From: Escherichia coli
Lineage (GTDB): Bacteria > Pseudomonadota > Gammaproteobacteria > Enterobacterales > Enterobacteriaceae
Reading direction: 5' to 3' (one strand)
NCBI RefSeq assembly: GCF_022846255.1
Contig: NZ_AP025682.1
DNA: 64,000 nt
Under the pieces are notes generated by a model. That model worked only from the letters and a program-made list of their open reading frames with translations, did not search any database and was not told where the DNA came from. This document shows, piece after piece, positions 4,686-64,000 of the stretch. The translations under genes and the position numbers were made by a program. Within the stretch, counting starts at the first letter, position 1. The number at the start of each line of letters is the position of its first letter.

Positions 4686-6788
4686 ATGAAGATTTTTTCC
4701 GTCCGACAAACCGTTTTGCCCGCACTGCTTGTCCTTTCCCCCGTTGTTTTTGCCGCTGATGAACAGACCATGATTGTCAGTGCCGCACCGCAGGTGGTTT
4801 CAGAACTGGATACCCCAGCAGCCGTGAGCGTGGTGGATGGCGAGGAGATGCGCCTGGCAACACCGCGCATTAACTTGTCTGAATCACTGACTGGCGTGCC
4901 TGGTTTGCAGGTACAAAACCGGCAGAACTATGCGCAAGATTTACAGCTGTCGATTCGCGGATTTGGCTCCCGCTCCACTTACGGAATTCGTGGTATTCGC
5001 CTGTATGTGGACGGTATTCCCGCCACCATGCCCGACGGACAAGGGCAAACATCTAACATCGATTTAAGCAGTGTGCAAAATGTGGAAGTGCTGCGTGGCC
5101 CCTTCTCTGCTCTGTATGGCAACGCGTCTGGCGGTGTAATGAATGTCACCACCCAGACCGGACAACAGCCACCAACCATTGAAGCCAGTAGTTACTACGG
5201 CAGTTTTGGCAGCTGGCGCTATGGGCTGAAAGCTACGGGCGCAACGGGCGACGGCACACAGCCTGGCGATGTCGATTACACCGTCTCAACCACACGTTTT
5301 ACGACCCACGGCTATCGTGACCATAGTGGCGCACAGAAAAATTTAGCCAATGCCAAACTGGGCGTTCGCATTGATGACGCCAGCAAATTAAGCCTGATTT
5401 TCAATAGTGTGGATATCAAAGCAGATGACCCAGGTGGGCTAACCGAAGCAGAATGGAAGGCGAATCCACAACAAGCGCCTCGTGCAGAACAGTACGACAC
5501 GCGAAAAACCATCAAGCAAACTCAGGCTGGGTTGCGCTATGAGCGTAGCCTGAGCGCGCAAGATGATATGAGTGTGATGATGTATGCCGGAGAGCGAGAA
5601 ACGACCCAGTACCAGTCAATCCCGATGGCCCCCCAACTTAACCCGTCGCATGCGGGCGGCGTGATTACTCTGCAACGCCATTACCAGGGGATAGACAGCC
5701 GCTGGACACACCGTGGTGATCTGGGCGTTCCGGTCACGTTCACTACCGGCCTGAACTATGAAAACATGAGTGAAAACCGCAAGGGCTACAATAACTTCCG
5801 CCTGAATAGCGGCGTGCCGGAATACGGGCAAAAAGGTGAGTTGCGCCGCGACGAACGCAATCTGATGTGGAACGTCGATCCCTATTTACAGACGCAGTGG
5901 CAGCTGAGCGAAAAACTGTCGCTGGATGCTGGCGTGCGCTACAGCTCCGTGTGGTTTGATTCCAACGACCATTACGTTACTCCGGGTAACGGCGATGACA
6001 GCGGTGATGCCAGTTATCACAAATGGCTACCTGCCGGTTCGTTAAAATATGCAATGACCGATGCCTGGAATATCTATCTGGCAGCCGGGCGAGGTTTTGA
6101 AACGCCGACGATTAATGAGCTGTCTTATCGTGCTGATGGACAAAGCGGTATGAACTTTGGGTTAAAACCCTCCACCAACGATACAATTGAGATCGGCAGT
6201 AAAACGCGTATTGGTGATGGGCTGCTTAGTCTCGCATTGTTCCAGACCGACACCGATGATGAAATTGTTGTCGATAGCAGTAGCGGTGGGCGTACGACTT
6301 ACAAAAATGCCGGAAAGACCCGTCGTCAAGGCGCTGAACTGGCATGGGCTCAACGTTTCGCGGGAGATTTTCGCGTAAAAGCGTCCTGGACCTGGCTTGA
6401 TGCGACCTATCGCAGCAATGTGTGCAATGAACAGGATTGTAACGGTAACCGGATGCCAGGGATCGCCCGTAATATGGGCTTTGCGTCGATAGGTTATATA
6501 CCGGAAGATGGTTGGTATGCAGGCACGGAAGCGCGTTATATGGGCGATATTATGGCAGATGATGAAAATACGGCCAAAGCGCCTTCTTATACACTCGTCG
6601 GCTTATTCACCGGGTATAAATACAATTACCACAATTTTACCGTGGATTTATTTGGTCGTGTCGATAATTTATTCGATAAAGAATACGTTGGCTCTGTCAT
6701 TGTCAATGAGTCAAACGGGCGATATTACGAACCTGCGCCCGGACGAAATTATGGTGTCGGCATAAATATTGCGTGGCGATTTGAGTGA
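4686..6788 (+). CDS. yncD: TonB-dependent outer membrane receptor YncD (700 aa)
   Basis: ORF track 4554..6788; start placed at MKIFSVRQTVLPALLVLSPVVFA signal peptide (ATG 4686); C-terminal ...AWRFE typical of TonB-dependent receptors. Confidence 0.9.
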   Translation: MKIFSVRQTVLPALLVLSPVVFAADEQTMIVSAAPQVVSELDTPAAVSVVDGEEMRLATPRINLSESLTGVPGLQVQNRQNYAQDLQLSIRGFGSRSTYGIRGIRLYVDGIPATMPDGQGQTSNIDLSSVQNVEVLRGPFSALYGNASGGVMNVTTQTGQQPPTIEASSYYGSFGSWRYGLKATGATGDGTQPGDVDYTVSTTRFTTHGYRDHSGAQKNLANAKLGVRIDDASKLSLIFNSVDIKADDPGGLTEAEWKANPQQAPRAEQYDTRKTIKQTQAGLRYERSLSAQDDMSVMMYAGERETTQYQSIPMAPQLNPSHAGGVITLQRHYQGIDSRWTHRGDLGVPVTFTTGLNYENMSENRKGYNNFRLNSGVPEYGQKGELRRDERNLMWNVDPYLQTQWQLSEKLSLDAGVRYSSVWFDSNDHYVTPGNGDDSGDASYHKWLPAGSLKYAMTDAWNIYLAAGRGFETPTINELSYRADGQSGMNFGLKPSTNDTIEIGSKTRIGDGLLSLALFQTDTDDEIVVDSSSGGRTTYKNAGKTRRQGAELAWAQRFAGDFRVKASWTWLDATYRSNVCNEQDCNGNRMPGIARNMGFASIGYIPEDGWYAGTEARYMGDIMADDENTAKAPSYTLVGLFTGYKYNYHNFTVDLFGRVDNLFDKEYVGSVIVNESNGRYYEPAPGRNYGVGINIAWRFE

Positions 6789-10750: not shown

Positions 10751-12175
10751 TTAATGTTTAACCATGACGTGGCGGACGACGGTGTAATCCTCCAGCCCAT
10801 AAAGTGACATATCCTTGCCGTAACCAGAAAGTTTCTGCCCACCGTGCGGCATTTCACTTACCAGCATGAAATGGGTATTGACCCAGGTACAACCATATTG
10901 CAGCCGCGCGCTGACGCGATGCACCCTGCCCACATCTTTCGTCCATACCGAAGATGCAAGTCCGTACTGGCTGTCATTCGCCCAGTTCACCACCTGTTCT
11001 TCGTTGTCGAAGAGCGTAACACTCACTACCGGACCAAATACCTCTTTTTGCACGATGGCATCGTCCTGTAATGCGCCAGCCAGCAGCGTCGGCGCATAGT
11101 AATAGCCATTACCCTTGCGCTTTTCACCGCCAGTGATCACTTTGATGTGCCCTGTCGCTTTCGCCTCTTCTACCGCCTTGCTGACGCGTTCGAGATGCGC
11201 CAGCGAGCTTAAAGGTCCAAGCTCCGTAGACTCGTCATCCGGCGAACCCGATTTTAACGTTGCCACCGCAGCACCGAGTTTTTCCACCAGCGTATCGTAA
11301 ATGCCTTTTTGCGCGTAGATCCGACAAGCCGCAGTACAATCCTGTCCGGCATTGTAATAGCCAAAAGTACGTACACCTTCGACCACTGCTTCAATATCCG
11401 CATCATCAAAAACAATCACTGGCGCTTTGCCACCAAGTTCCATATGAGTACGCTTAATGGACGGCGCGGTATGGCTGATGATGTGTTCCCCAGTGGCGAT
11501 AGAACCCGTCAGCGACACCATCCGCACTTTGGGATGTCCGGTCAGCGGATCGCCCACCGTTTTGCCTCTGCCAAACAGCACGTTAATCACGCCAGCCGGG
11601 AAGATATCTTTCGCCAGCTCTGCCAACTTCAACGCGGTCAGCGGGGTAATTTCTGATGGTTTAAGCACTACGCAGTTCCCTGCCGCCAGCGCCGGAGCCA
11701 GTTTCCACGCAGCCATCATCAGCGGATAATTCCACGGTGCGATAGAAGCCACGACCCCCAACGGATCGCGACGGATCATCGAAGTATGACCTTCAAGATA
11801 TTCACCTGCCGCCAGACCATTCAGGCAGCGCGCCGCACCGGCGAAAAAGCGAAAGACATCGACAATCGCCGGAATTTCATCATTGAACGCGCGATGCAGC
11901 GGTTTGCCACAATTACGGGACTCCAGTTCGGCAAAAACCTGACCATTTTCTTCAATAACATCAGCCAGTTTCAGCAGGCATTCCGCACGCGCTTTTGGCG
12001 TGGTTTGCCCCCATTCGGCAAATGCTGCATCTGCCGCGCGAACAGCAGCATTGACCTGCTCTGCGGATGCCTCGGCAATCTCCAGTAAAACGTCCCCCGT
12101 TGCCGGATTATAGACAGGCTGTTTTTCCCCTTCGCCGCTAACCAGTTCTCCGTTAATCAGTAACTTATGTTGCAT
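10751..12175 (-). CDS. patD: gamma-aminobutyraldehyde dehydrogenase (474 aa)
   Basis: ORF track; aldehyde dehydrogenase family sequence with catalytic Cys region. Confidence 0.93.
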
Positions 12176-55700: not shown

Positions 55701-56242
55701 CCAACACCGGTGGTCAGGCGTCGAAAGCGACACCGCTGGGTGCAGTAACTAAGTTTGGCGAGCACGGCAAACGTAAAGCGCGTAAAGATCTTGGCGTCAG
55801 TATGATGATGTACGGTCATGTTTATGTGGCGCAGATTTCTCTCGGCGCGCAGCTGAACCAGACGGTGAAAGCGATTCAGGAAGCGGAAGCGTATCCGGGG
55901 CCATCGCTGATCATCGCTTATAGCCCATGTGAAGAGCATGGTTACGATCTGGCACTCAGCCACGATCAGATGCGCCAACTCACTGCTACCGGCTTCTGGC
56001 CGTTATATCGCTTCGATCCTCGTCGTGCCGATGAAGGCAAACTGCCGCTGGCGCTGGATTCACGCCCGCCGTCAGAAGCACTGGAAGAAACGTTACTTCA
56101 CGAGCAGCGTTTCCGTCGTCTGAATTCGCAGCAGCCAGAAGTGGCAGAACAGTTATGGAAAGATGCTGCAGCTGATTTGCAAAAGCGCTATGACTTCCTG
56201 GCACAAATGGCCGGAAAAGCGGAAAAAAGCAACACCGATTAA
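52718..56242 (+). CDS. ydbK: pyruvate:flavodoxin/ferredoxin oxidoreductase (1174 aa)
   Basis: ORF track; two 4Fe-4S ferredoxin CxxCxxCxxxCP motifs and TPP-binding domain. Confidence 0.95.
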   Translation: MITIDGNGAVASVAFRTSEVIAIYPITPSSTMAEQADAWAGNGLKNVWGDTPRVVEMQSEAGAIATVHGALQTGALSTSFTSSQGLLLMIPTLYKLAGELTPFVLHVAARTVATHALSIFGDHSDVMAVRQTGCAMLCAANVQEAQDFALISHIATLKSRVPFIHFFDGFRTSHEINKIVPLADDTILELMPQAEIDAHRARALNPEHPVIRGTSANPDTYFQSREATNPWYNAVYDHVEQAMNDFAAATGRQYQPFEYYGHPQAERVIILMGSAIGTCEEVVDELLTRGEKVGVLKVRLYRPFSAKHLLQALPGSVRNVAVLDRTKEPGAQAEPLYLDVMTALAEAFNNGERETLPRVIGGRYGLSSKEFGPDCVLAVFAELNAAKPKARFTVGIYDDVTNLSLPLPENTLPNSAKLEALFYGLGSDGSVSATKNNIKIIGNSTPWYAQGYFVYDSKKAGGLTVSHLRVSEQPIRSAYLISQADFVGCHQLQFIDKYQMAERLKPGGIFLLNTPYSAAEVWSRLPQEVQAVLNQKKARFYVINAAKIARECGLAARINTVMQMVFFHLTQILPGDSALAELQGAIAKSYSSKGQDLVERNWQALALARESVEEVPLQPVNPHSANRPPVVSDAAPDFVKTVTAAMLAGLGDALPVSALPPDGTWPMGTTRWEKRNIAEEIPIWKEELCTQCNHCVAACPHSAIRAKVVPPEAMENAPASLHSLDVKSRDMRGQKYVLQVAPEDCTGCNLCVEVCPAKDRQNPEIKAINMMSRLEHVEEEKINYDFFLNLPEIDRSKLERIDIRTSQLITPLFEYSGACSGCGETPYIKLLTQLYGDRMLIANATGCSSIYGGNLPSTPYTTDANGRGPAWANSLFEDNAEFGLGFRLTVDQHRVRVLRLLDQFADKIPAELLTALKSDATPEVRREQVAALRQQLNDVAEAHELLRDADALVEKSIWLIGGDGWAYDIGFGGLDHVLSLTENVNILVLDTQCYSNTGGQASKATPLGAVTKFGEHGKRKARKDLGVSMMMYGHVYVAQISLGAQLNQTVKAIQEAEAYPGPSLIIAYSPCEEHGYDLALSHDQMRQLTATGFWPLYRFDPRRADEGKLPLALDSRPPSEALEETLLHEQRFRRLNSQQPEVAEQLWKDAAADLQKRYDFLAQMAGKAEKSNTD

Positions 56243-56270
56243 ATGCTCTGGATAAGGATCATCCAATTCT

Positions 56271-56380
56271 AAAAAAAAGCCCGGACGACTGTTCGGGCTT
56301 GTCTTCTTATATGTTGGAAAATCAGTAGCAATGCAATGGCCCAACAGAAAATAAAATCTGTGACAATAAAGGCATATAAC
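56271..56380 (-). ncRNA. micC: MicC Hfq-dependent small RNA (ompC/ompD repressor)
   Basis: Minus strand reads GTTATATGCCTTTATTGTCACAGATTTTATTTTCTGTTGGGCCATTGCATTGC...AGCCCGAACAGTCGTCCGGGCTTTTTTTT; divergent from ompN as in K-12. Confidence 0.85.
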
Positions 56381-56607
56381 CCGCGCAGAATAACGTATAG
56401 AAAATTAAAAGTATAATTTTTATTTTGTATGTGTTATCTCCAATACATTCACCAGACTTATTATCATTTCTGAAGAATTATTTAATTAAGGTTTTACTTA
56501 AGGCGTAACAAATGATATTTATCGGCTAACTGAACTTCTCCTTTAGGATGTTTTCACTCCCCAAAATGGGGATGAAAGGCAAATAAAATAACTAAAGGAT
56601 TTATTCA

Positions 56608-57741
56608 ATGAAAAGCAAAGTACTGGCACTCTTAATTCCTGCCCTGCTCGCTGCAGGTGCTGCACATGCAGCCGAAGTTTATAATAAAGACGGCAACAAA
56701 TTAGATCTGTATGGCAAAGTTGATGGCCTGCATTATTTTTCTGATAATTCAGCGAAAGATGGCGACCAGAGCTATGCTCGTCTGGGTTTTAAAGGCGAAA
56801 CCCAAATTAACGATCAACTCACTGGCTACGGTCAATGGGAATACAATATTCAGGCAAACAACACCGAATCTTCAACAAACCAGTCATGGACCCGTCTGGC
56901 ATTTGCCGGACTGAAATTTGCAGATTACGGTTCTTTCGATTACGGACGTAATTATGGCGTAATGTACGACATCGAAGGCTGGACTGATATGCTACCTGAA
57001 TTTGGCGGTGACTCTTATACCAATGCAGACAACTTTATGACTGGTCGTGCCAATGGCGTCGCGACTTATCGTAATGCTGATTTCTTCGGTCTGGTAAATG
57101 GTCTGAACTTCGCGGTGCAGTATCAAGGTAACAACGAAGGTGCCAGTAATGGTCAGGAAGGCACCAACAACGGACGTGATGTTCGCCATGAAAACGGTGA
57201 CGGCTGGGGTCTTTCCACAACATATGATTTAGGCATGGGCTTTAACGCTGGTGCGGCATACACCTCTTCTGACCGCACCAATGACCAGGTTAACCATACT
57301 GCGGCGGGTGGTGATAAAGCAGACGCGTGGACTGCTGGGCTAAAATACGATGCTAACAATATTTACCTGGCAACCATGTATTCAGAAACGCGTAATATGA
57401 CCCCGTTTGGCGACAGCGATTATGCTGTTGCAAACAAAACCCAGAACTTTGAAGTCACTGCACAGTACCAGTTTGATTTTGGTCTGCGTCCGGCAGTCTC
57501 TTTCCTGATGTCTAAAGGCCGTGACCTGCACGCTGCCGGTGGTGCAGACAACCCAGCAGGTGTTGATGATAAAGATCTGGTTAAATACGCCGATGTTGGC
57601 GCGACTTACTATTTCAATAAAAACATGTCCACCTATGTTGACTATAAAATCAACCTGTTGGATGAAGATGACAGTTTCTACGCTGCCAACGGCATCTCTA
57701 CCGATGATATCGTCGCTTTAGGTCTGGTTTATCAGTTCTAA
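56608..57741 (+). CDS. ompN: outer membrane porin OmpN (377 aa)
   Basis: ORF track; signal peptide, general-porin family, C-terminal ...LVYQF. Confidence 0.93.
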
Positions 57742-57749
57742 ATCCCCCT

Positions 57750-57773
57750 GCCCGCTGTTTTGGCGGGCTTTTT
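57750..57773 (+). terminator. rho-independent terminator of ompN
   Basis: GCCCGC...GCGGGC hairpin followed by TTTTT just after the ompN stop. Confidence 0.6.
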
Positions 57774-57800
57774 CTGCCTATTCATCCTCCTTTGATCTAA

Positions 57801-58316
<516 letters not shown>

Positions 58317-58323
58317 CACTAAC

Positions 58324-58348
58324 GCCCGCACATTGCTGCGGGCTTTTT
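58324..58348 (+). terminator. rho-independent terminator of uspF
   Basis: GCCCGCA-CATTGC-TGCGGGC followed by TTTTT. Confidence 0.65.
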
Positions 58349-58502
58349 GATTCATTTCGCAAATGTGCTGACATTTTCCCCTCTAATCATTACAATTTAA
58401 ATTTATGAATTATGCATTGATAATCGCTATTATAATATCGTTCCCTGTGCATTATTATCAGTTTTTCTGGTATTAAAAGACTGGGCGCTAATAGGAGATG
58501 CA

Positions 58503-59004
58503 ATGAACCACGCAATGTTTCCTGGCATAGTTCTAGCCTGGATTATAGGTATGCCGCTGGGAATTGGTGCATTTATTGTAGGACTGTCTTGTGCAATTGC
58601 AACTGGCTATCTGAAAGATAATAGCATCATAAAGAAAGATACCATTATAGGTATCGTTTTTTCAGGAATTTTTGTCTTGACTATCAACAGGCACAAGTCA
58701 GCGGATTACAGATATCATTATTACATTACAGTTTACTCTGCATGGTATCGCCTACCATTTTTGCCACATTAAAAGCAGTCGGAATTATTCTGTCTATATA
58801 CTATTAACAGCTCCAGGGTCTATTGCTGTCCTCACCACGCGTCGCTTTCATAAGGCATTACTTATCGCCGTAACGATATCAATAACAATATCAGGCGTAT
58901 GGTTATTATATTTTCTCGACAGAGCCCCAGCGCCGACAATCGTCCTCTTATTTGCTGTAGCATTTCTTTTCGCGCTGATAATAATCAATTTTCGGAAACA
59001 ATAA
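58503..59004 (+). pseudogene. membrane protein remnant resembling the C-terminal half of an ABC-3 family (ZnuB/MntB/SitD-type) metal-transport permease; two frameshifts
   Basis: AGGAG-ATG start, then hydrophobic reading continues through three frames; final frame ends ...FLDRAPAPTIVLLFAVAFLFALIIINFRKQ, like the conserved ABC-3 permease C-terminus; AT-rich codon usage. Confidence 0.45.
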
Positions 59005-59283
59005 TCTCAACAGTAGAATAAAGAGGCAAATCAATCATTACATATATAAGATGGTGCTAATATTGTACCGCCTTTAAATTGAATTTTATCCTTTCACCCT
59101 TACACAATTTAAGGAATGCAGATGACTATTTTATCAGCTCCCAGCCTTTTTCCTGGTAATCGAAAACTTGAAAATCATTAACTCTAAGAAATTCTGCCAA
59201 ATCGTTGAAATTACTTTAAATTAGACTCGAACAAATCAACCCCTGATGGGGCTTTTACTTATCAATTTAATCGTGTAGATATC

Positions 59284-59331
59284 GACCTCCATCTGCCCGC
59301 CTCAGATTCGTACCTGGTGGAGGTCTTTTTT
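59284..59331 (+). terminator. orphan terminator-like hairpin with U-tract in the AT-rich remnant region
   Basis: GACCTCCA...TGGAGGTC 8-10 bp stem followed by TTTTTT; a second small hairpin (CCCCTGATGGGG) lies about 40 nt upstream; no annotated gene ends here. Confidence 0.4.
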
Positions 59332-59392
59332 CGTTGCCTCTTTCCCCCTTTAGTTCAGTATAAAATCATCAAACTAATGCTGTTCACACTAT

Positions 59393-59572
59393 TTACCTCC
59401 AGCATTCTATATAAATAATAGAAATAAAAACCCCAATACATAGTGCATTGGCATGACCAAACATCAATGCCATTATACTCGCCTCTGTTAAATACTCGCT
59501 AGTTAATATGATAGGCACGCATGATATAACAATCCATATGCTAATACATAAATACACCAGTATTTTTCTCAT
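59393..59572 (-). CDS. candidate small membrane protein (59 aa), AT-rich, unknown function
   Basis: Hand translation: MRKILVYLCISIWIVISCVPIILTSEYLTEASIMALMFGHANALCIGVFISIIYIECWR; AGGGA RBS-like 7 nt upstream; two hydrophobic segments; below ORF-track cut-off. Confidence 0.3.
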   Translation of the reverse strand: MRKILVYLCISIWIVISCVPIILTSEYLTEASIMALMFGHANALCIGVFISIIYIECWR

Positions 59573-60279
59573 AGTCAGTCCCTGTGATTAACAACAAGGC
59601 ATAGTTAAACATATTTCACATTCAAACGTAAACATTATTAATAAAATTCTGTCAATCAAACTGACATCACGATTCAAGCCCTCTTCAAACTGAAGGTTAG
59701 AGCAGCGTAGAACATTTCAAAACAATACACTAAAAAAATACCCGAACAAAAAACTTAATTCTTTTTTATTGTGAACTTTAGTAATTTTGCCATGCAACTC
59801 TTTATTACATTTAGGCCTATCTTATTTCATGGCAACGCAGATACAGGACCATTTCTTGTGCTATGGATAAGTAATAAGCTAGTTACATCTTTTTAAGAGA
59901 ACCATTTTCACATATCAAGATATCATCACCACCCACAATGAATTAAGTATTTTTCTTATTCTTTAGATTAGATGCGTAATGAATCCCTAACTCCATTCGG
60001 GCGTTATGGCTCTTTCATTTGAAATACATTCATATCCAATGTAATATTTCCATGCGCAAATATAACTACCGACCATACTCATCATTTATTACAGAGAATT
60101 ATTTTATTCACCGAAAAGTTTCACAAAATATCCCCTGATAGAAAACTAAAAAACACTGCATAATATCGCTATTCTGGCACTTGCGAAAAATTATATTCTG
60201 CACCTGTTGTAGCGTTCTATTTCTCCGCCTGGCAACGAATGCACAATGTCCGCCACAGTTTCTGTTCTAATTTCTTCCT

Positions 60280-60588
60280 GTGTTACCGCATCCTGTACGG
60301 GTAGCGCAACACCAGCATGCTAAGCAAGGCTTTCCCATCAGATTTCACTACGACTATTTGGGAGCGAGATGGAATGCAGCAGTAAAACGTGCTGGTATTC
60401 GCCGCCGTAATCCGTACCATACGCGACATACTTTTGCCTGCTGGCTGTTGACGGCAGGAGCGAACCCGGCATTTATAGCCAGCCAGATGGGGCATGAAAC
60501 TGCGCAGATGGTGTATGAAATTTACGGTATGTGGATTGATGACATGAACGACGAACAGGTAGCCATGTTAAATGCGCGGTTATCGTAG
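60280..60588 (+). pseudogene. phage tyrosine integrase, C-terminal fragment (Rac-type integrase remnant)
   Basis: ORF carries the integrase C-terminal catalytic region (...HTRHTFACWLLTAGANPAFIASQMGHETAQMVYEIY...); no N-terminal or core-binding domain; directly upstream of ttcA. Confidence 0.7.
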
Positions 60589-60639
60589 TTGCAAAGTTTG
60601 CCCTCAATATGCCCCACTTAGTACCAGAGAACTGAAATA

Positions 60640-61575
60640 ATGCAAGAAAATCAACAAATTACAAAGAAAGAACAATACAACCTGAACAAATTACAAAAAC
60701 GTCTGCGTCGTAACGTGGGCGAAGCCATTGCTGACTTCAATATGATTGAAGAAGGCGATCGCATCATGGTTTGCCTCTCCGGGGGTAAAGACAGCTATAC
60801 CATGCTGGAGATTCTGCGCAATTTGCAGCAAAGCGCGCCAATCAATTTTTCGCTGGTGGCTGTTAACCTCGATCAAAAGCAACCGGGCTTCCCGGAACAC
60901 GTTCTGCCCGAGTATCTTGAAAAGCTGGGCGTTGAGTACAAGATTGTTGAAGAGAACACTTACGGTATCGTGAAAGAGAAGATTCCGGAGGGCAAAACCA
61001 CTTGCTCACTGTGTTCTCGCCTGCGTCGCGGTATCCTTTATCGTACCGCAACGGAACTAGGGGCGACGAAGATCGCACTGGGTCACCATCGTGACGATAT
61101 CCTGCAAACGCTGTTCTTAAATATGTTCTACGGTGGCAAGATGAAAGGTATGCCTCCGAAACTGATGAGCGATGATGGCAAACATATCGTGATCCGTCCG
61201 CTGGCCTACTGCCGCGAGAAAGATATTCAGCGCTTTGCCGATGCAAAAGCGTTCCCGATTATTCCGTGCAACCTGTGCGGTTCACAGCCTAACCTGCAAC
61301 GTCAGGTGATTGCTGACATGTTGCGTGACTGGGATAAACGTTATCCGGGGCGTATCGAGACGATGTTCAGCGCAATGCAGAATGTGGTGCCGTCGCATCT
61401 GTGCGATACCAACCTGTTCGATTTCAAAGGCATTACCCACGGTTCTGAAGTGGTTAACGGGGGTGATCTGGCGTTTGATCGCGAAGAGATCCCACTACAA
61501 CCAGCGGGCTGGCAGCCTGAAGAAGATGAAAATCAGTTGGATGAGTTACGGCTGAATGTGGTTGAAGTGAAATAA
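60640..61575 (+). CDS. ttcA: tRNA-cytidine(32) 2-sulfurtransferase TtcA (311 aa)
   Basis: ORF track; PP-loop motif SGGKDS and CxxC pairs. Confidence 0.93.
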
Positions 61576-61660
61576 CCCGGATAGCGCCCGATGCGCAAGC
61601 GTATCGGGCTACTCTTATGGAGGCCGGATAAGACGCGGCCAGCGTCACATCCGGCAATGC
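61576..61660. repeat. REP/BIME cluster between ttcA and dbpA
   Basis: Palindromic units CCCGATGCGCAAGCGTATCGGG and GGCCGGATAAGACGCGGCCAGCGTCACATCCGGCA in the convergent intergenic region. Confidence 0.6.
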
Positions 61661-61703
61661 CGAAGAAGATGTTTACTCTTGCACCCTGCAATTCAACATT
61701 TCA

Positions 61704-63077
61704 TTATTTTAATAACCGCACCCGGCACGTTTTTCCTTTAATCTTCCCACCCTGTAGCTGTTTCCATGCTTTATGAGCAACAGCCTGACGCACCGCGACA
61801 TAGACATGCGCCGGATGCACGGCAATTTTGCCAATATCTGCGCCATCAAGCCCGATGTCTCCTGTCAGCGCACCTAATACATCACCCGGGCGCATTTTGG
61901 CTTTTTTCCCGCCATCGATACACAACGTTGCCATTTCTGCTTTCAGCGGCACAATGGAACTATTTGCTGGCGGCGTTTGCCAGTTAAGTTTTATCTGCAA
62001 CATGTCAGAAATGATATTGGCCCGCTGTGCTTCTTCCGGGGCACAGAAACTGATCGCCAGACCGCTATTTCCTGCACGAGCTGTACGACCGATGCGATGT
62101 ACATGAACTTCAGGGTCCCACGCCAGCTCAAAGTTCACCACCAGCTCAAGCGATTTTATATCCAGACCACGCGCAGCAACATCAGTCGCGACCAGTACAC
62201 GGGCGCTACCGTTAGCAAAACGTACCAGGGTCTGATCGCGATCGCGTTGCTCCAGATCGCCGTGTAACGACAATGCACTTTGCCCTACTTCATTCAGCGC
62301 GTCACAGACAGCCTGGCAATCTTTTTTGGTATTGCAAAACACCACGCAAGAGGATGGCTGATGCAAGCTTAATAACCGTTGCAACAGAGGAATTTTGCCT
62401 TTGCTGGATGTCTCATAAAATTGTTGTTCAATAGGTGGCAGAGCATCTGTTGAGTCAATTTCAATCGCTAAAGGATCGCGTTGCACTCTTCCGCTGATTG
62501 CGGCAATGGCTTCCGGCCAGGTTGCCGAAAACAGAAGTGTCTGCCGAGATGCTGGCGCAAAACGGATGACATCATCAATGGCGTCACTAAATCCCATATC
62601 CAGCATGCGGTCGGCCTCATCCATCACCAGCGTATTCAACGCATCCAGTGATACAGTGCCTTTTTGCAGGTGATCCAGCAAACGGCCCGGCGTTGCCACG
62701 ATAATATGCGGCGCATGTTGCAACGAATCACGCTGCATACCGAACGGTTGACCACCGCACAACGTCAAAATTTTGGTATTTAGCAGAAAACGCGCCAGCC
62801 GACGCAATTCACCTGCCACCTGATCCGCCAGTTCACGCGTAGGACACAGCACTAAACCCTGGGTTTGAAATAGCGACACATCAATTTGCTGTAACAAGCC
62901 GAGGCCAAAAGCCGCCGTTTTGCCGCTGCCGGTTTTCGCCCGCACGCGAACATCTTTTCCGGCAAGGATCGCCGGAAGCGCGGCGGCCTGCACCGGCGTC
63001 ATGGTTAAATAACCCAACTCATTAAGGTTTGTGAGTTGGGCGGGAGGCAAAACATTCAGGGTAGAAAAAGCGGTCAC
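61704..63077 (-). CDS. dbpA: ATP-dependent RNA helicase DbpA (DEAD-box, 23S rRNA hairpin-92 specific), 457 aa
   Basis: ORF track; motifs AKTGSGKT, DEAD, SAT and C-terminal RNA-binding domain. Confidence 0.95.
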   Translation of the reverse strand: MTAFSTLNVLPPAQLTNLNELGYLTMTPVQAAALPAILAGKDVRVRAKTGSGKTAAFGLGLLQQIDVSLFQTQGLVLCPTRELADQVAGELRRLARFLLNTKILTLCGGQPFGMQRDSLQHAPHIIVATPGRLLDHLQKGTVSLDALNTLVMDEADRMLDMGFSDAIDDVIRFAPASRQTLLFSATWPEAIAAISGRVQRDPLAIEIDSTDALPPIEQQFYETSSKGKIPLLQRLLSLHQPSSCVVFCNTKKDCQAVCDALNEVGQSALSLHGDLEQRDRDQTLVRFANGSARVLVATDVAARGLDIKSLELVVNFELAWDPEVHVHRIGRTARAGNSGLAISFCAPEEAQRANIISDMLQIKLNWQTPPANSSIVPLKAEMATLCIDGGKKAKMRPGDVLGALTGDIGLDGADIGKIAVHPAHVYVAVRQAVAHKAWKQLQGGKIKGKTCRVRLLK

Positions 63078-63106
63078 AATCTATTCTCGTGGTCATCGAC
63101 GCAAAG

Positions 63107-63280
63107 TCAGCAGGCGCGTATCCTCGCAGATCTACGCTCACGATGCGACAATTTAATCGGTTCTTCATCGGGTGGTGGGTCAGGCATGGGTTGCGGGCGA
63201 GGGATCGGATCAGGTACTGGAACAGGATCGCCAGGAATCGGTTCAGGGACAGGAATTTGCAAATAAATAAGTGTCGTCAT
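63107..63280 (-). CDS. candidate proline-rich small protein (57 aa) immediately upstream of dbpA
   Basis: ATG at 63280-63278 preceded by GGAGGG; translation MTTLIYLQIPVPEPIPGDPVPVPDPIPRPQPMPDPPPDEEPIKLSHRERRSARIRAC; stop 29 nt before dbpA start; below ORF-track cut-off. Confidence 0.4.
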   Translation of the reverse strand: MTTLIYLQIPVPEPIPGDPVPVPDPIPRPQPMPDPPPDEEPIKLSHRERRSARIRAC

Positions 63281-63554
63281 ATTTCCCTCCGGTCATTGGG
63301 TGGACTCTTAAAGGGTAGACGCTGATAAATAACAGGCAAAAAAAAGCCGACTCATCAAAGTCGGCGTCGTACGAATCAATTGTGCTATGCAGTAATTCAA
63401 AAAAGGAAGTAAGACAATATGGAGCGCAACGCCCATCGCTTGACGTTGCATTCACCTGCAAGAGAGATATTGCCCTGAATGGGTAGAGAGTTTATTGACT
63501 TCGCTCAAACTTTACGGCGTTTTTGTATACAGATAGCCGGAAAAATTGCTTTTG

Positions 63555-64000
<446 letters not shown>

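Follow-up and report, generated by a model that had tools for sequence, protein, structure and literature searches.

Several Escherichia coli prophages that integrated at the end of a gene have lost their mobility by deletion and kept only a few genes, and the 'grounded' or defective prophages DLP12, e14 and Qin are examples (Ramisetty & Sudhakari, 2019; PMC6379469). In K-12 the Rac prophage lies beside ttcA with its integrase gene intR adjacent and the ttcC' pseudogene at its far end, as the initial annotation of the present locus correctly stated. The 23-kb Rac of K-12 retains intact int and xis genes as well as its two att sites, and it is still capable of excision (PMC4632033). In strain CFT073 the N-terminus of TtcA is rac-type although no rac lies at ttcA, a case reported without an explanation (Liu et al., 2015; PMC4632033). 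TtcA variants have been reported to differ in carbenicillin tolerance. Among the CFT073 Tn5 insertions of a copper screen is one 'between c1819 and c1820'. The sitABCD metal-uptake genes were found in 70% of the intestinal lambda phages of one collection (Mathieu et al., 2020; PMC6969025).

The interval between uspF and ttcA studied here (58317-60639, ∼ 2.3 kb) comes from E. coli GCF_022846255.1, contig NZ_AP025682.1; positions refer to the window, the whole 64-kb stretch of DNA analysed. Local gene order is nifJ-micC-ompN-uspF-[scar]-ttcA-dbpA-ynaL-fnrS-zntB. Across the scar lie, in order, a sitD-like permease pseudogene (sitD'), a hok relic, an intact small open reading frame (orf59), relics of lygF and ydaW and an integrase tail, followed by ttcA itself. 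The scar very probably represents the fixed, non-mobile remains of a single lambdoid prophage, a mosaic of the Rac/Qin type. The suggestion, made initially from the letters of the sequence, that an integrase-bearing element has been reduced to a scar is supported by relics that keep a Rac/Qin-type order and orientation and by the position of the sit cargo.

Among 5,426 complete genomes of E. coli, 1,043-1,049 carry the same scar, at the same place and in one copy, while 2,483 have an empty uspF-ttcA site; the copy in E2348/69 is 99.8% identical. We take the carriers, the present strain included, to be phylogroup B2 on the basis of the named strains E2348/69, UTI89, CFT073, NC101, LF82 and ST131. 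No intact locus aligned end to end with the region; the same degenerate locus alone did so (∼ 1,043 genomes), and RefSeq annotates the scar-bearing loci as pseudogenes throughout. On the uspF side, positions 57800-58396 (uspF plus 80 bp) match K-12 at 98.8%, homology ends at 58396 and B2-specific sequence starts at 58397. The spacer 3' of uspF that is common to all E. coli holds the first part of a very decayed integrase fossil (58361-58396, plus strand): a 51-bp alignment of the K-12 spacer to the 3' region of intR has 76% identity and a score of 42 versus 16.4 ± 1.9 for shuffled sequences (none of 500 reached it). The fossil is much older than the scar, and it shows that this site has served for integration on more than one occasion. 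An Rfam scan of 56000-64000 at E ≤ 1 gave nothing inside the scar; micC and fnrS were found outside it, and the remaining hits were sub-threshold noise.

The 3' integrase fragment that had been noted as abutting ttcA was confirmed (60343/60357-60588). The stub (60343-60588, plus strand) is co-oriented with ttcA and consists of the last 81 codons (∼ residues 331-411 of 411) of a Rac-type IntR. Its protein sequence is 93.8% identical to IntR of Rac-SA53 and 92.6% to that of K-12; its DNA from 60357 matches the intR 3' end at 97.5% (K-12) and 96.5% (Rac-SA53), and PHROG integrase families are matched with E = 1e-22. It is therefore the 81-codon tail of a 411-codon phage integrase, not a full-length non-phage gene. 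Between its end and the start of ttcA (60640) lie 51 bp, the same spacer as in K-12. This phage-derived spacer and the phage-type first 50 nt of ttcA together form the attL side (60589-60689, plus strand), in an arrangement identical to K-12 intR-ttcA and to the annotated attP of Rac-SA53.

A 26-bp att core occupies 60664-60689 (nt 25-50 of ttcA). The search for a core repeat flanking the remnant, proposed with the initial annotation, found this core to be single: no second copy (attR) was detected in the 64-kb window with up to three mismatches allowed, and blastn returned no copy of ttcC'. A full-length integrase is absent (only residues ∼ 331-411 are left) and there is no xis homology. Because attR, a working int and xis are all missing, the scar, as read from its sequence, cannot excise. 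The N-terminus of TtcA is of the phage type, as in Rac-bearing K-12, where the ancestral form is encoded by ttcC'. This phage-encoded N-terminus is now permanent in B2 strains such as CFT073, and the scar explains the rac-type TtcA of that strain, which resolves a small puzzle of the literature.

The DNA between the permease and integrase fragments had been described as very AT-rich and without a long ORF. The composition and ORF content hold (31-39% G+C in 59005-60356 versus ∼ 50% in the flanks; longest ORF 59 codons), but the stretch is not featureless, since relics of ydaW, lygF and hok lie inside it, all on the minus strand. An internal fragment of ydaW (DUF1627; 60230-60340) is 86.6% identical to ydaW of Rac-SA53 (phage coordinates 12336-12447) and is a DUF1627 pseudogene in RefSeq. 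The C-terminal part of lygF, which encodes a Ren-like protein, follows at 60114-60250 with 72-75% identity to lygF of Rac-SA53, PhiR42_1 and 640R1; a 31-codon ORF here (60108-60203) matches positions 87-114 of 116 of PHROG 142, 'Ren-like exclusion protein' (E = 1.6e-6). The hok/mok type I toxin relic (59232-59338) comprises a C-terminal part and a short 3' flank; alignments of 66-98 bp with the hok genes of Rac-SA53, mEp460, PhiR42_1 and 640R1 show 76-80% identity. Just the last 22-35 codons are recognizable, with an in-frame stop inside (relic '..TKKDLHQVRI*GGQMEVDIYT' versus Hok '..TRKDLCEVRIRTGQTEVAVFT') and no intact ORF of ∼ 50 codons. Homology ends at 59338; upstream of this point no DNA homology to a sok/mok regulatory region was seen, nor an Rfam match at E ≤ 1.

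The spacer between the permease and hok relics (59005-59231) matches the same B2 locus only, in searches of phage, plasmid and E. coli DNA and of proteins, and the AT-rich stretch 59594-60113 has no phage or plasmid match. A 786-bp core (59339-60124) occurs at this locus only, in 1,044 complete E. coli genomes, and a distant blastn search of all complete E. coli genomes found no diverged copies of it. Distant blastn of the whole scar against phages and plasmids gave matches limited to sitD, hok, lygF, ydaW and int, and tblastn with six-frame ORFs of Rac-SA53, K-12 Rac, 4A7, mEp460, PhiR42_1 and 640R1 revealed no further relics in 59005-59231 or 59594-60113. Two 'full-length' plasmid matches to the scar are records carrying the same chromosomal segment.

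At the uspF end, the frameshifted permease fragment reported initially is present at 58405-59004 (plus strand). It is a pseudogene of a sitD-like ABC-3 metal-transporter permease whose translation needs three frames, and RefSeq agrees, giving it in identical loci the label 'metal ABC transporter permease, frameshifted'. The gene has lost ∼ 14 codons at its N-terminus, frameshifts have accumulated at positions that vary from strain to strain, and an internal deletion of 171 bp (57 codons) lies at 58674/58677. Membership of PF00950 (ABC-3) was precomputed on the called ORF fragments of the locus, and full-length SitD proteins match this family with E ∼ 1e-50. Full-length SitD-type relatives, among them those of Pluralibacter and Pantoea, share ∼ 45% identity overall, rising to 61-66% over the 44% of the query that aligns best; at the DNA level sitD of lambda-like phages and plasmids is 67-69% identical. 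The uninterrupted ORF of ∼ 280 codons is lost, and no sitA, sitB or sitC partner gene lies between uspF and sitD'. In phage 4A7 the layout is xis, int, attP and sitA-B-C-D, then tail genes on the opposite strand; once this arrangement is integrated, sitD falls where sitD' sits, in identical orientation. A separate island is an alternative source for sitD'.

Collinearity is clearest with Rac-SA53, where window positions 60357-60760, 60230-60340, 60125-60238 and 59273-59338 correspond to 1054-651, 12447-12336, 13060-12947 and 18006-17941, so that the order and relative orientation of int, ydaW, lygF and hok are kept. From this anatomy we infer that a Rac-type integrase would have inserted a phage at the att core in an ancestor of the B2 lineage, the phage carrying a divergent sitABCD-like metal-uptake operon as cargo beside attP. 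At least six deletions would then have taken ∼ 95% of the element. Lost would be attR (with the displaced original 5' end of ttcA), sitABC, xis, int up to codon 330 and every gene for structure, lysis and regulation; left would be the collinear stubs sitD', hok', lygF', ydaW' and int', along with some unassignable AT-rich DNA and a single small ORF that is still intact. As a result ttcA is now preceded by the integrase 3' end in place of its ancestral upstream region. No intact relative of the scar's phage was found, and because the phage has no reference genome, the single-element origin rests on order and orientation. That no reference phage unites these modules could point instead to two tandem elements, a sit-like island or second prophage at the uspF side and a Rac-type prophage at the ttcA side, each decayed separately. 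Such an origin would also fit the reuse of the site, recorded by the older integrase fossil in the spacer of all E. coli, and the far greater divergence of sitD' (∼ 67% DNA identity to phage sit) than of int' (97.5% to Rac). Unequal divergence between modules is, however, expected because lambdoid phages are mosaics, sitD' has exactly the position and orientation of attP-proximal cargo in a single lambdoid prophage, and neither an att core nor a second integrase relic nor any other boundary separates sitD' from hok'. We therefore regard two elements as improbable and retain the single prophage.

The one ORF that has escaped this decay, orf59 (59393-59572, minus strand), has 59 codons, with AGGGA six bases 5' of its ATG, and encodes two predicted hydrophobic helices (hydropathy peaks at residues 4-22 and 33-55). 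A word-indexed protein search returned only its E. coli copies, and an exhaustive HMMER search was needed to recover the family, whose members are 38-44% identical to it. In phages PhiR42_1 and 640R1, as in metagenome contigs, the homologue has lygF on one side and hok on the other. Those of the two phages align with orf59 without gaps over 59 codons, share its start and stop, and end in ...IE[YC]WR*. With pN = 0.34 and pS = 0.71 (dN/dS about 0.2), the family alignment shows long-term coding constraint. Searches of orf59 against Pfam, PHROGs and NCBIfam gave nothing significant and PADLOC no match at all, and no mention of the peptide was found in published papers. RefSeq does not call orf59 as a gene, and in the PhiR42_1 and 640R1 records an antisense ORF is annotated in place of the homologue; the family thus consists of unannotated small membrane proteins, common among E. 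coli prophages, at whose loci RefSeq and phage records have either no gene call or one on the wrong strand. That orf59 could be a second Hok-like toxin was considered and dropped, as there is no PF01848 match and the architecture, with two helices, differs.

Diversity within the scar was compared among 18 genomes (15 haplotypes) in ∼ 9 windows, which were chosen after the data had been viewed. Segregating sites make up 3.3-7.9% of positions in the relics; for synonymous positions in uspF and ttcA the figure is 5.8-8.8%, and most of the scar drifts neutrally. The spacer 59005-59231 is neutral-like (nine segregating sites in 207 bp), and 59594-60113 is the most variable part (41 sites in 520 bp). 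Two zones differ: the orf59 zone (59347-59593) has two segregating sites in 247 bp, the remaining relics 99 in a combined 1705 bp (Fisher p = 1.7e-4), and the integrase stub has two in 232 bp among the 18 genomes (p = 4e-4 versus the other relics). Both p values survive correction for about nine windows. The question raised initially, whether the AT-rich DNA still encodes anything, thus has a partial answer in one intact 59-codon ORF within a low-diversity island. To judge from this low diversity, orf59 has possibly been retained as a functional small membrane protein, and the integrase stub, now the upstream region of ttcA, is probably kept as its promoter or leader. A promoter scan of the plus strand from 60200 to 60639 called no promoter-like site, so none convincing for ttcA lies in the stub. 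The scan also gave no convincing site for orf59, and no conserved promoter is evident in the highly polymorphic DNA just upstream of it (59594-59700).

How much weight the two zones can bear depends on three readings of the same variation. The strongest of them would make both pieces domesticated in B2, orf59 under purifying selection for host benefit, for example through a membrane-active exclusion or toxin-like function, and the stub as promoter or leader of the tRNA-thiolation gene ttcA; if true, it would explain why the deletions stopped exactly at those pieces. We hold it only tentatively, and it is rather doubtful for both pieces together. Somewhat easier to credit, if short of an even chance, is that the whole scar is junk, orf59 and integrase stub included, and that low diversity reflects chance, local mutation rate or past recombination. 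The windows were picked post hoc and the sample is just 18 genomes (15 haplotypes), the region 5' of orf59 is highly variable, and orf59 lacks a family annotation and is passed over by RefSeq. Moreover, the sample contains two non-synonymous polymorphisms in orf59 and no synonymous one, so that the pattern within B2 is by itself no proof of selection on the protein. Set against junk are the two Fisher tests, which hold after correction for the ∼ 9 windows, the low dN/dS of the orf59 family, and a frame that stayed open amid AT-rich sequence as all the genes around it were destroyed, the catalogued variants being nearly all full length with single substitutions. In addition, ttcA has to be transcribed from some promoter, and the DNA that originally preceded it is no longer there.

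The invariance extends to synonymous sites, as might be expected if the island 59347-59593 were a structured small RNA, for instance a regulatory leftover of hok/sok, rather than a protein-coding gene. The island immediately precedes the hok relic and shares its strand, and a terminator-like hairpin with a T-run is predicted on the minus strand (59451-59433). Yet neither strand has a notable folding energy (z = -0.19 and -1.26), on which ground an RNA was rejected as lead explanation, Rfam gives no match at E ≤ 1, homology to the hok locus stops at 59338, and the phage homologue preserves the protein frame better (tblastn E = 7e-17 in sense versus 1.4e-9 in antisense). We consider a small RNA highly improbable.

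Taken as a whole, the locus is an ordinary genomic fossil, largely annotated already, with two modest leads in orf59 and the integrase stub, and it leaves the current understanding of prophage decay unchanged. It is a well-resolved case of extreme prophage whittling in which the pieces that the adjacent host gene probably needs were spared. With K-12 Rac and the inducible Rac-SA53 it shares the ttcA att core, the integrase type, the TtcA N-terminus and the int-ydaW-lygF-hok order. In contrast to K-12 Rac, 2.2 kb are left, with 81 int codons and neither attR nor xis, and the sit-like cargo is absent from both K-12 Rac and Rac-SA53. The lambda-like coliphages (Lambda_4A7, NC_049946; Mathieu et al., 2020) provide the parallel for this cargo, a SitD-family permease at the attP-proximal end of the b region whose orientation relative to int is that of sitD'; unlike the scar's phage they integrate at icd with another integrase, and their intact sitD is 66-69% identical in DNA. 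In its nin-like region, where orf59 immediately precedes hok, the scar is like Qin-type phages and not Rac: PhiR42_1 and vB_EcoS-640R1 have lygF, an orf59 homologue and hok arranged alike and all on one strand, but are complete phages with another integrase (59% amino-acid identity) and an orf59 homologue that is ∼ 40-44% identical. Compared with DLP12, e14 and Qin, the scar is far more reduced, and its presence, instead of varying, is fixed within one lineage.

The interval between uspF (57882-58316) and ttcA (60640-61575) measures 2,323 bp and lies in the gene order nifJ(ydbK)-micC-ompN-uspF-scar-ttcA-dbpA-ynaL-fnrS-zntB. G+C content is 31-39% across ~58300-60250 versus ~50% in the flanks, and the longest ORF listed within the interval has 59 codons, which agrees with the AT-rich DNA without a long ORF described in the initial annotation. 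In the flanking regions, Rfam placed MicC (56263-56383, minus strand, 122.7 bits) and FnrS (63342-63459, minus strand, 134.8 bits) at their expected positions. The corresponding K-12 interval is occupied by the 23-kb Rac prophage, whose intR abuts ttcA as the initial annotation stated, and the ttcC' pseudogene (51 bp, the displaced original ttcA 5' end, i.e. attR) lies 176 bp from uspF. The window is homologous to K-12 from uspF as far as 58396 and again from 60357, within intR (97.5% identity). RefSeq lists three pseudogenes at the identical locus in E2348/69, NC101, UTI89, LF82 and others: 'metal ABC transporter permease, frameshifted', 'DUF1627 domain-containing protein, frameshifted, incomplete' and 'tyrosine-type recombinase/integrase, missing N-terminus'. 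The left part needs three frames to encode an ABC-3/SitD-type permease, and a tyrosine integrase C-terminus ends 51 bp before the ttcA start; together with the RefSeq pseudogenes, these features show that the description of a frameshifted permease fragment and a 3' integrase fragment abutting ttcA was accurate.

The permease relic, sitD' (58405-59004, plus strand), lacks ~14 N-terminal codons relative to full-length relatives and carries a 171-bp internal deletion at 58674/58677; its frameshift positions differ from strain to strain. Full-length SitD proteins of Pluralibacter, Pantoea and E. coli share ~45% identity with it overall, rising to 61-66% in the best-matching 44% of the query; at the DNA level, sitD genes of phages and plasmids are 66-69% identical to it. 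In CFT073 the N-terminal ORF of sitD' is c1820, and c1819 would, at a guess, be the C-terminal part. A copper-resistance screen in that strain lists an unvalidated Tn5 insertion 'between c1819 and c1820' among its hits (PMC11005409). This insertion appears to lie within the sitD' pseudogene, and the hit could reflect polar effects on uspF.

Further relics lie on the minus strand: a C-terminal portion of hok interrupted by an in-frame stop (59232-59338), a lygF/Ren-like C-terminus (60114-60250) and a ydaW/DUF1627 fragment (60230-60340) with 86.6% identity to the inducible Rac phage Rac-SA53. Searches of phages, plasmids and complete E. coli genomes, and tblastn of phage ORFs, gave no match beyond the scar locus for 59005-59231 and 59594-60113. 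The scar blocks map to Rac-SA53 at 1054-651 (int/attP/ttcA), 12447-12336 (ydaW), 13060-12947 (lygF) and 18006-17941 (hok); they are strictly collinear, with the same orientation relative to int as in the complete phage. This bears out the proposal of an integrase-bearing element reduced to a scar. Phages PhiR42_1 and vB_EcoS-640R1 carry a homologue of the intact 59-codon ORF (orf59), with lygF on one side and hok on the other, all on one strand, just as in the scar. The order in the lambda-like phage 4A7 is xis, int, attP, sitA, sitB, sitC, sitD, then tail genes on the opposite strand; when the circle is opened at attP, sitD comes to lie near the int-distal end pointing toward int, matching sitD' in position and orientation. 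Intestinal lambda phages commonly carry the sitABCD operon as cargo; in one collection 70% of them had it (PMC6969025). From these comparisons we interpret the scar as a single sit-carrying lambdoid prophage of the Rac/Qin type. Searches of phages, plasmids and complete E. coli genomes yielded no intact relative of this phage. Judging by the block boundaries, reducing such a phage to the 2.2 kb left today would have taken at least six deletions.

The integrase stub (60343-60588, plus strand) corresponds to IntR residues ~331-411. Next come a spacer of phage origin and the first 50 nt of ttcA in their phage-type version (60589-60689); the 26-bp att core occupies 60664-60689. The search for a flanking core repeat that had been suggested found this single occurrence in the 64-kb window with three mismatches allowed, and DNA comparison with K-12 and blastn of the scar revealed no ttcC' copy. 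Excision by tyrosine recombinases has established requirements; with no attR, no xis and int down to 81 codons, excision of the scar is therefore impossible. The TtcA N-terminus (60640-60690) is the Rac-supplied form, not the ancestral form of ttcC' and empty sites. Liu et al. 2015 (PMC4632033) showed that four residues at the TtcA N-terminus change when Rac excises and that behaviour in carbenicillin is altered; they gave CFT073 as an unexplained exception, with a rac-type TtcA but no rac at ttcA. The exception is explained because CFT073 has the same scar (c1820 in sitD'), which implies that the rac-type variant has become fixed in the scar-carrying lineage. The DNA originally upstream of ttcA was first displaced and later lost by deletion, so on the simplest reading the stub would now carry the ttcA promoter or leader; a simple promoter scan called no promoter-like site in it.

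Of 5,426 complete E. coli genomes, 1,043 carry the full 2,323 bp, once and at the same place, and 1,044-1,049 carry the parts specific to the scar of phylogroup B2. The named carriers E2348/69, UTI89, CFT073, NC101, LF82 and ST131 are, we assume, B2 strains. In 2,483 complete genomes a single match spans a synthetic empty site built from uspF, 176 bp and the ancestral ttcA. In the others one match covers the uspF side as far as ttcC' and a separate one the ttcA side, as in K-12, and we infer from these alignments that their sites are occupied. IS200C insertions were seen in the empty-site spacer of H231 (NZ_CP154406.1) and within the B2 scar of H15 (NZ_CP065152.1). The spacer common to all E. 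coli (58317-58396) ends in ~36 bp (58361-58396) in which a far older integrase fossil begins; in K-12 (L003 30091-30141) the fossil runs on through a 'AATCCGTACCATAC' (NPYHTRH) motif. Alignment of the spacer from K-12 with the 3' region of intR scores 42, versus 16.4±1.9 for shuffles (0/500 reached 42). As this very old fossil lies in the 176-bp uspF-ttcA spacer of all E. coli, 'empty'-site strains included, the so-called empty site was itself occupied earlier.

Diversity was assessed in 18 genomes (the window and 17 other carriers, 15 haplotypes), picked by BLAST rank rather than phylogeny. Segregating sites amount to 5.6% in sitD', 4.3% in 59005-59211, 5.5% in hok', 7.9% in 59594-60113 and 3.3% in lygF'/ydaW', close to the synonymous sites of uspF (5.8%) and ttcA (8.8%); thus the scar behaves for the most part like neutral DNA. 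The AT-rich block 59594-60113 is the most polymorphic and contains most of the fixed differences that set the E2348/69-like lineage apart from other carriers, for which past recombination import and neutral drift are both possible. Two islands stand apart, the orf59 zone (59347-59593, 2 sites in 247 bp) and the integrase stub (60357-60588, 2 in 232 bp), versus 99 in 1,705 bp for the other relics (Fisher p = 1.7e-4 and 4e-4, respectively, with windows set after inspection of the data). The stub is far less polymorphic even than ttcA synonymous sites.

The intact orf59 (59393-59572, minus strand) encodes two hydrophobic segments, and AGGGA lies six bases ahead of its ATG. A word-indexed protein search retrieved E. 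coli copies only; an exhaustive search found homologues at 38-44% identity that are widespread among prophages of E. coli and Shigella. The alignment with a phage homologue is ungapped over 59/59 codons (59% DNA identity, pS 0.71, pN 0.34), and this, with a dN/dS of ~0.2, indicates that the family is genuinely coding. The sense frame is better conserved than the antisense (tblastn E = 7e-17 vs 1.4e-9). The phage records leave the gene unannotated (PhiR42_1 11053-11232, vB_EcoS-640R1 5001-5177) and call an overlapping antisense ORF there ('hypothetical protein', 'hornerin'). Catalogued B2 variants are nearly all full length with single substitutions. Against current function count the two polymorphisms among the 18 genomes, both non-synonymous, the highly variable 100 bp upstream, in which a promoter scan called no promoter, and the lack of a match in Pfam, PHROGs, NCBIfam and PADLOC. 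A structured RNA in place of a protein was unsupported by an Rfam scan and by RNA folding of both strands.

The scar pseudogenes are already annotated. Searches of the accessible literature turned up none of three further points: the scar's derivation from a single sit-carrying prophage of the Rac/Qin type, the account given here of the CFT073 exception, and the two islands of low diversity. In integration site and integrase type the scar is like Rac-type prophages; its nin-like region is similar to that of Qin-type phages, and its cargo to sit operons found in lambda-like coliphages, a mosaic that is normal for lambdoid phages. It does not qualify as a functional Rac-type prophage because int, xis and attR are missing, and it works like any of the 'grounded' prophage remnants (PMC6379469).
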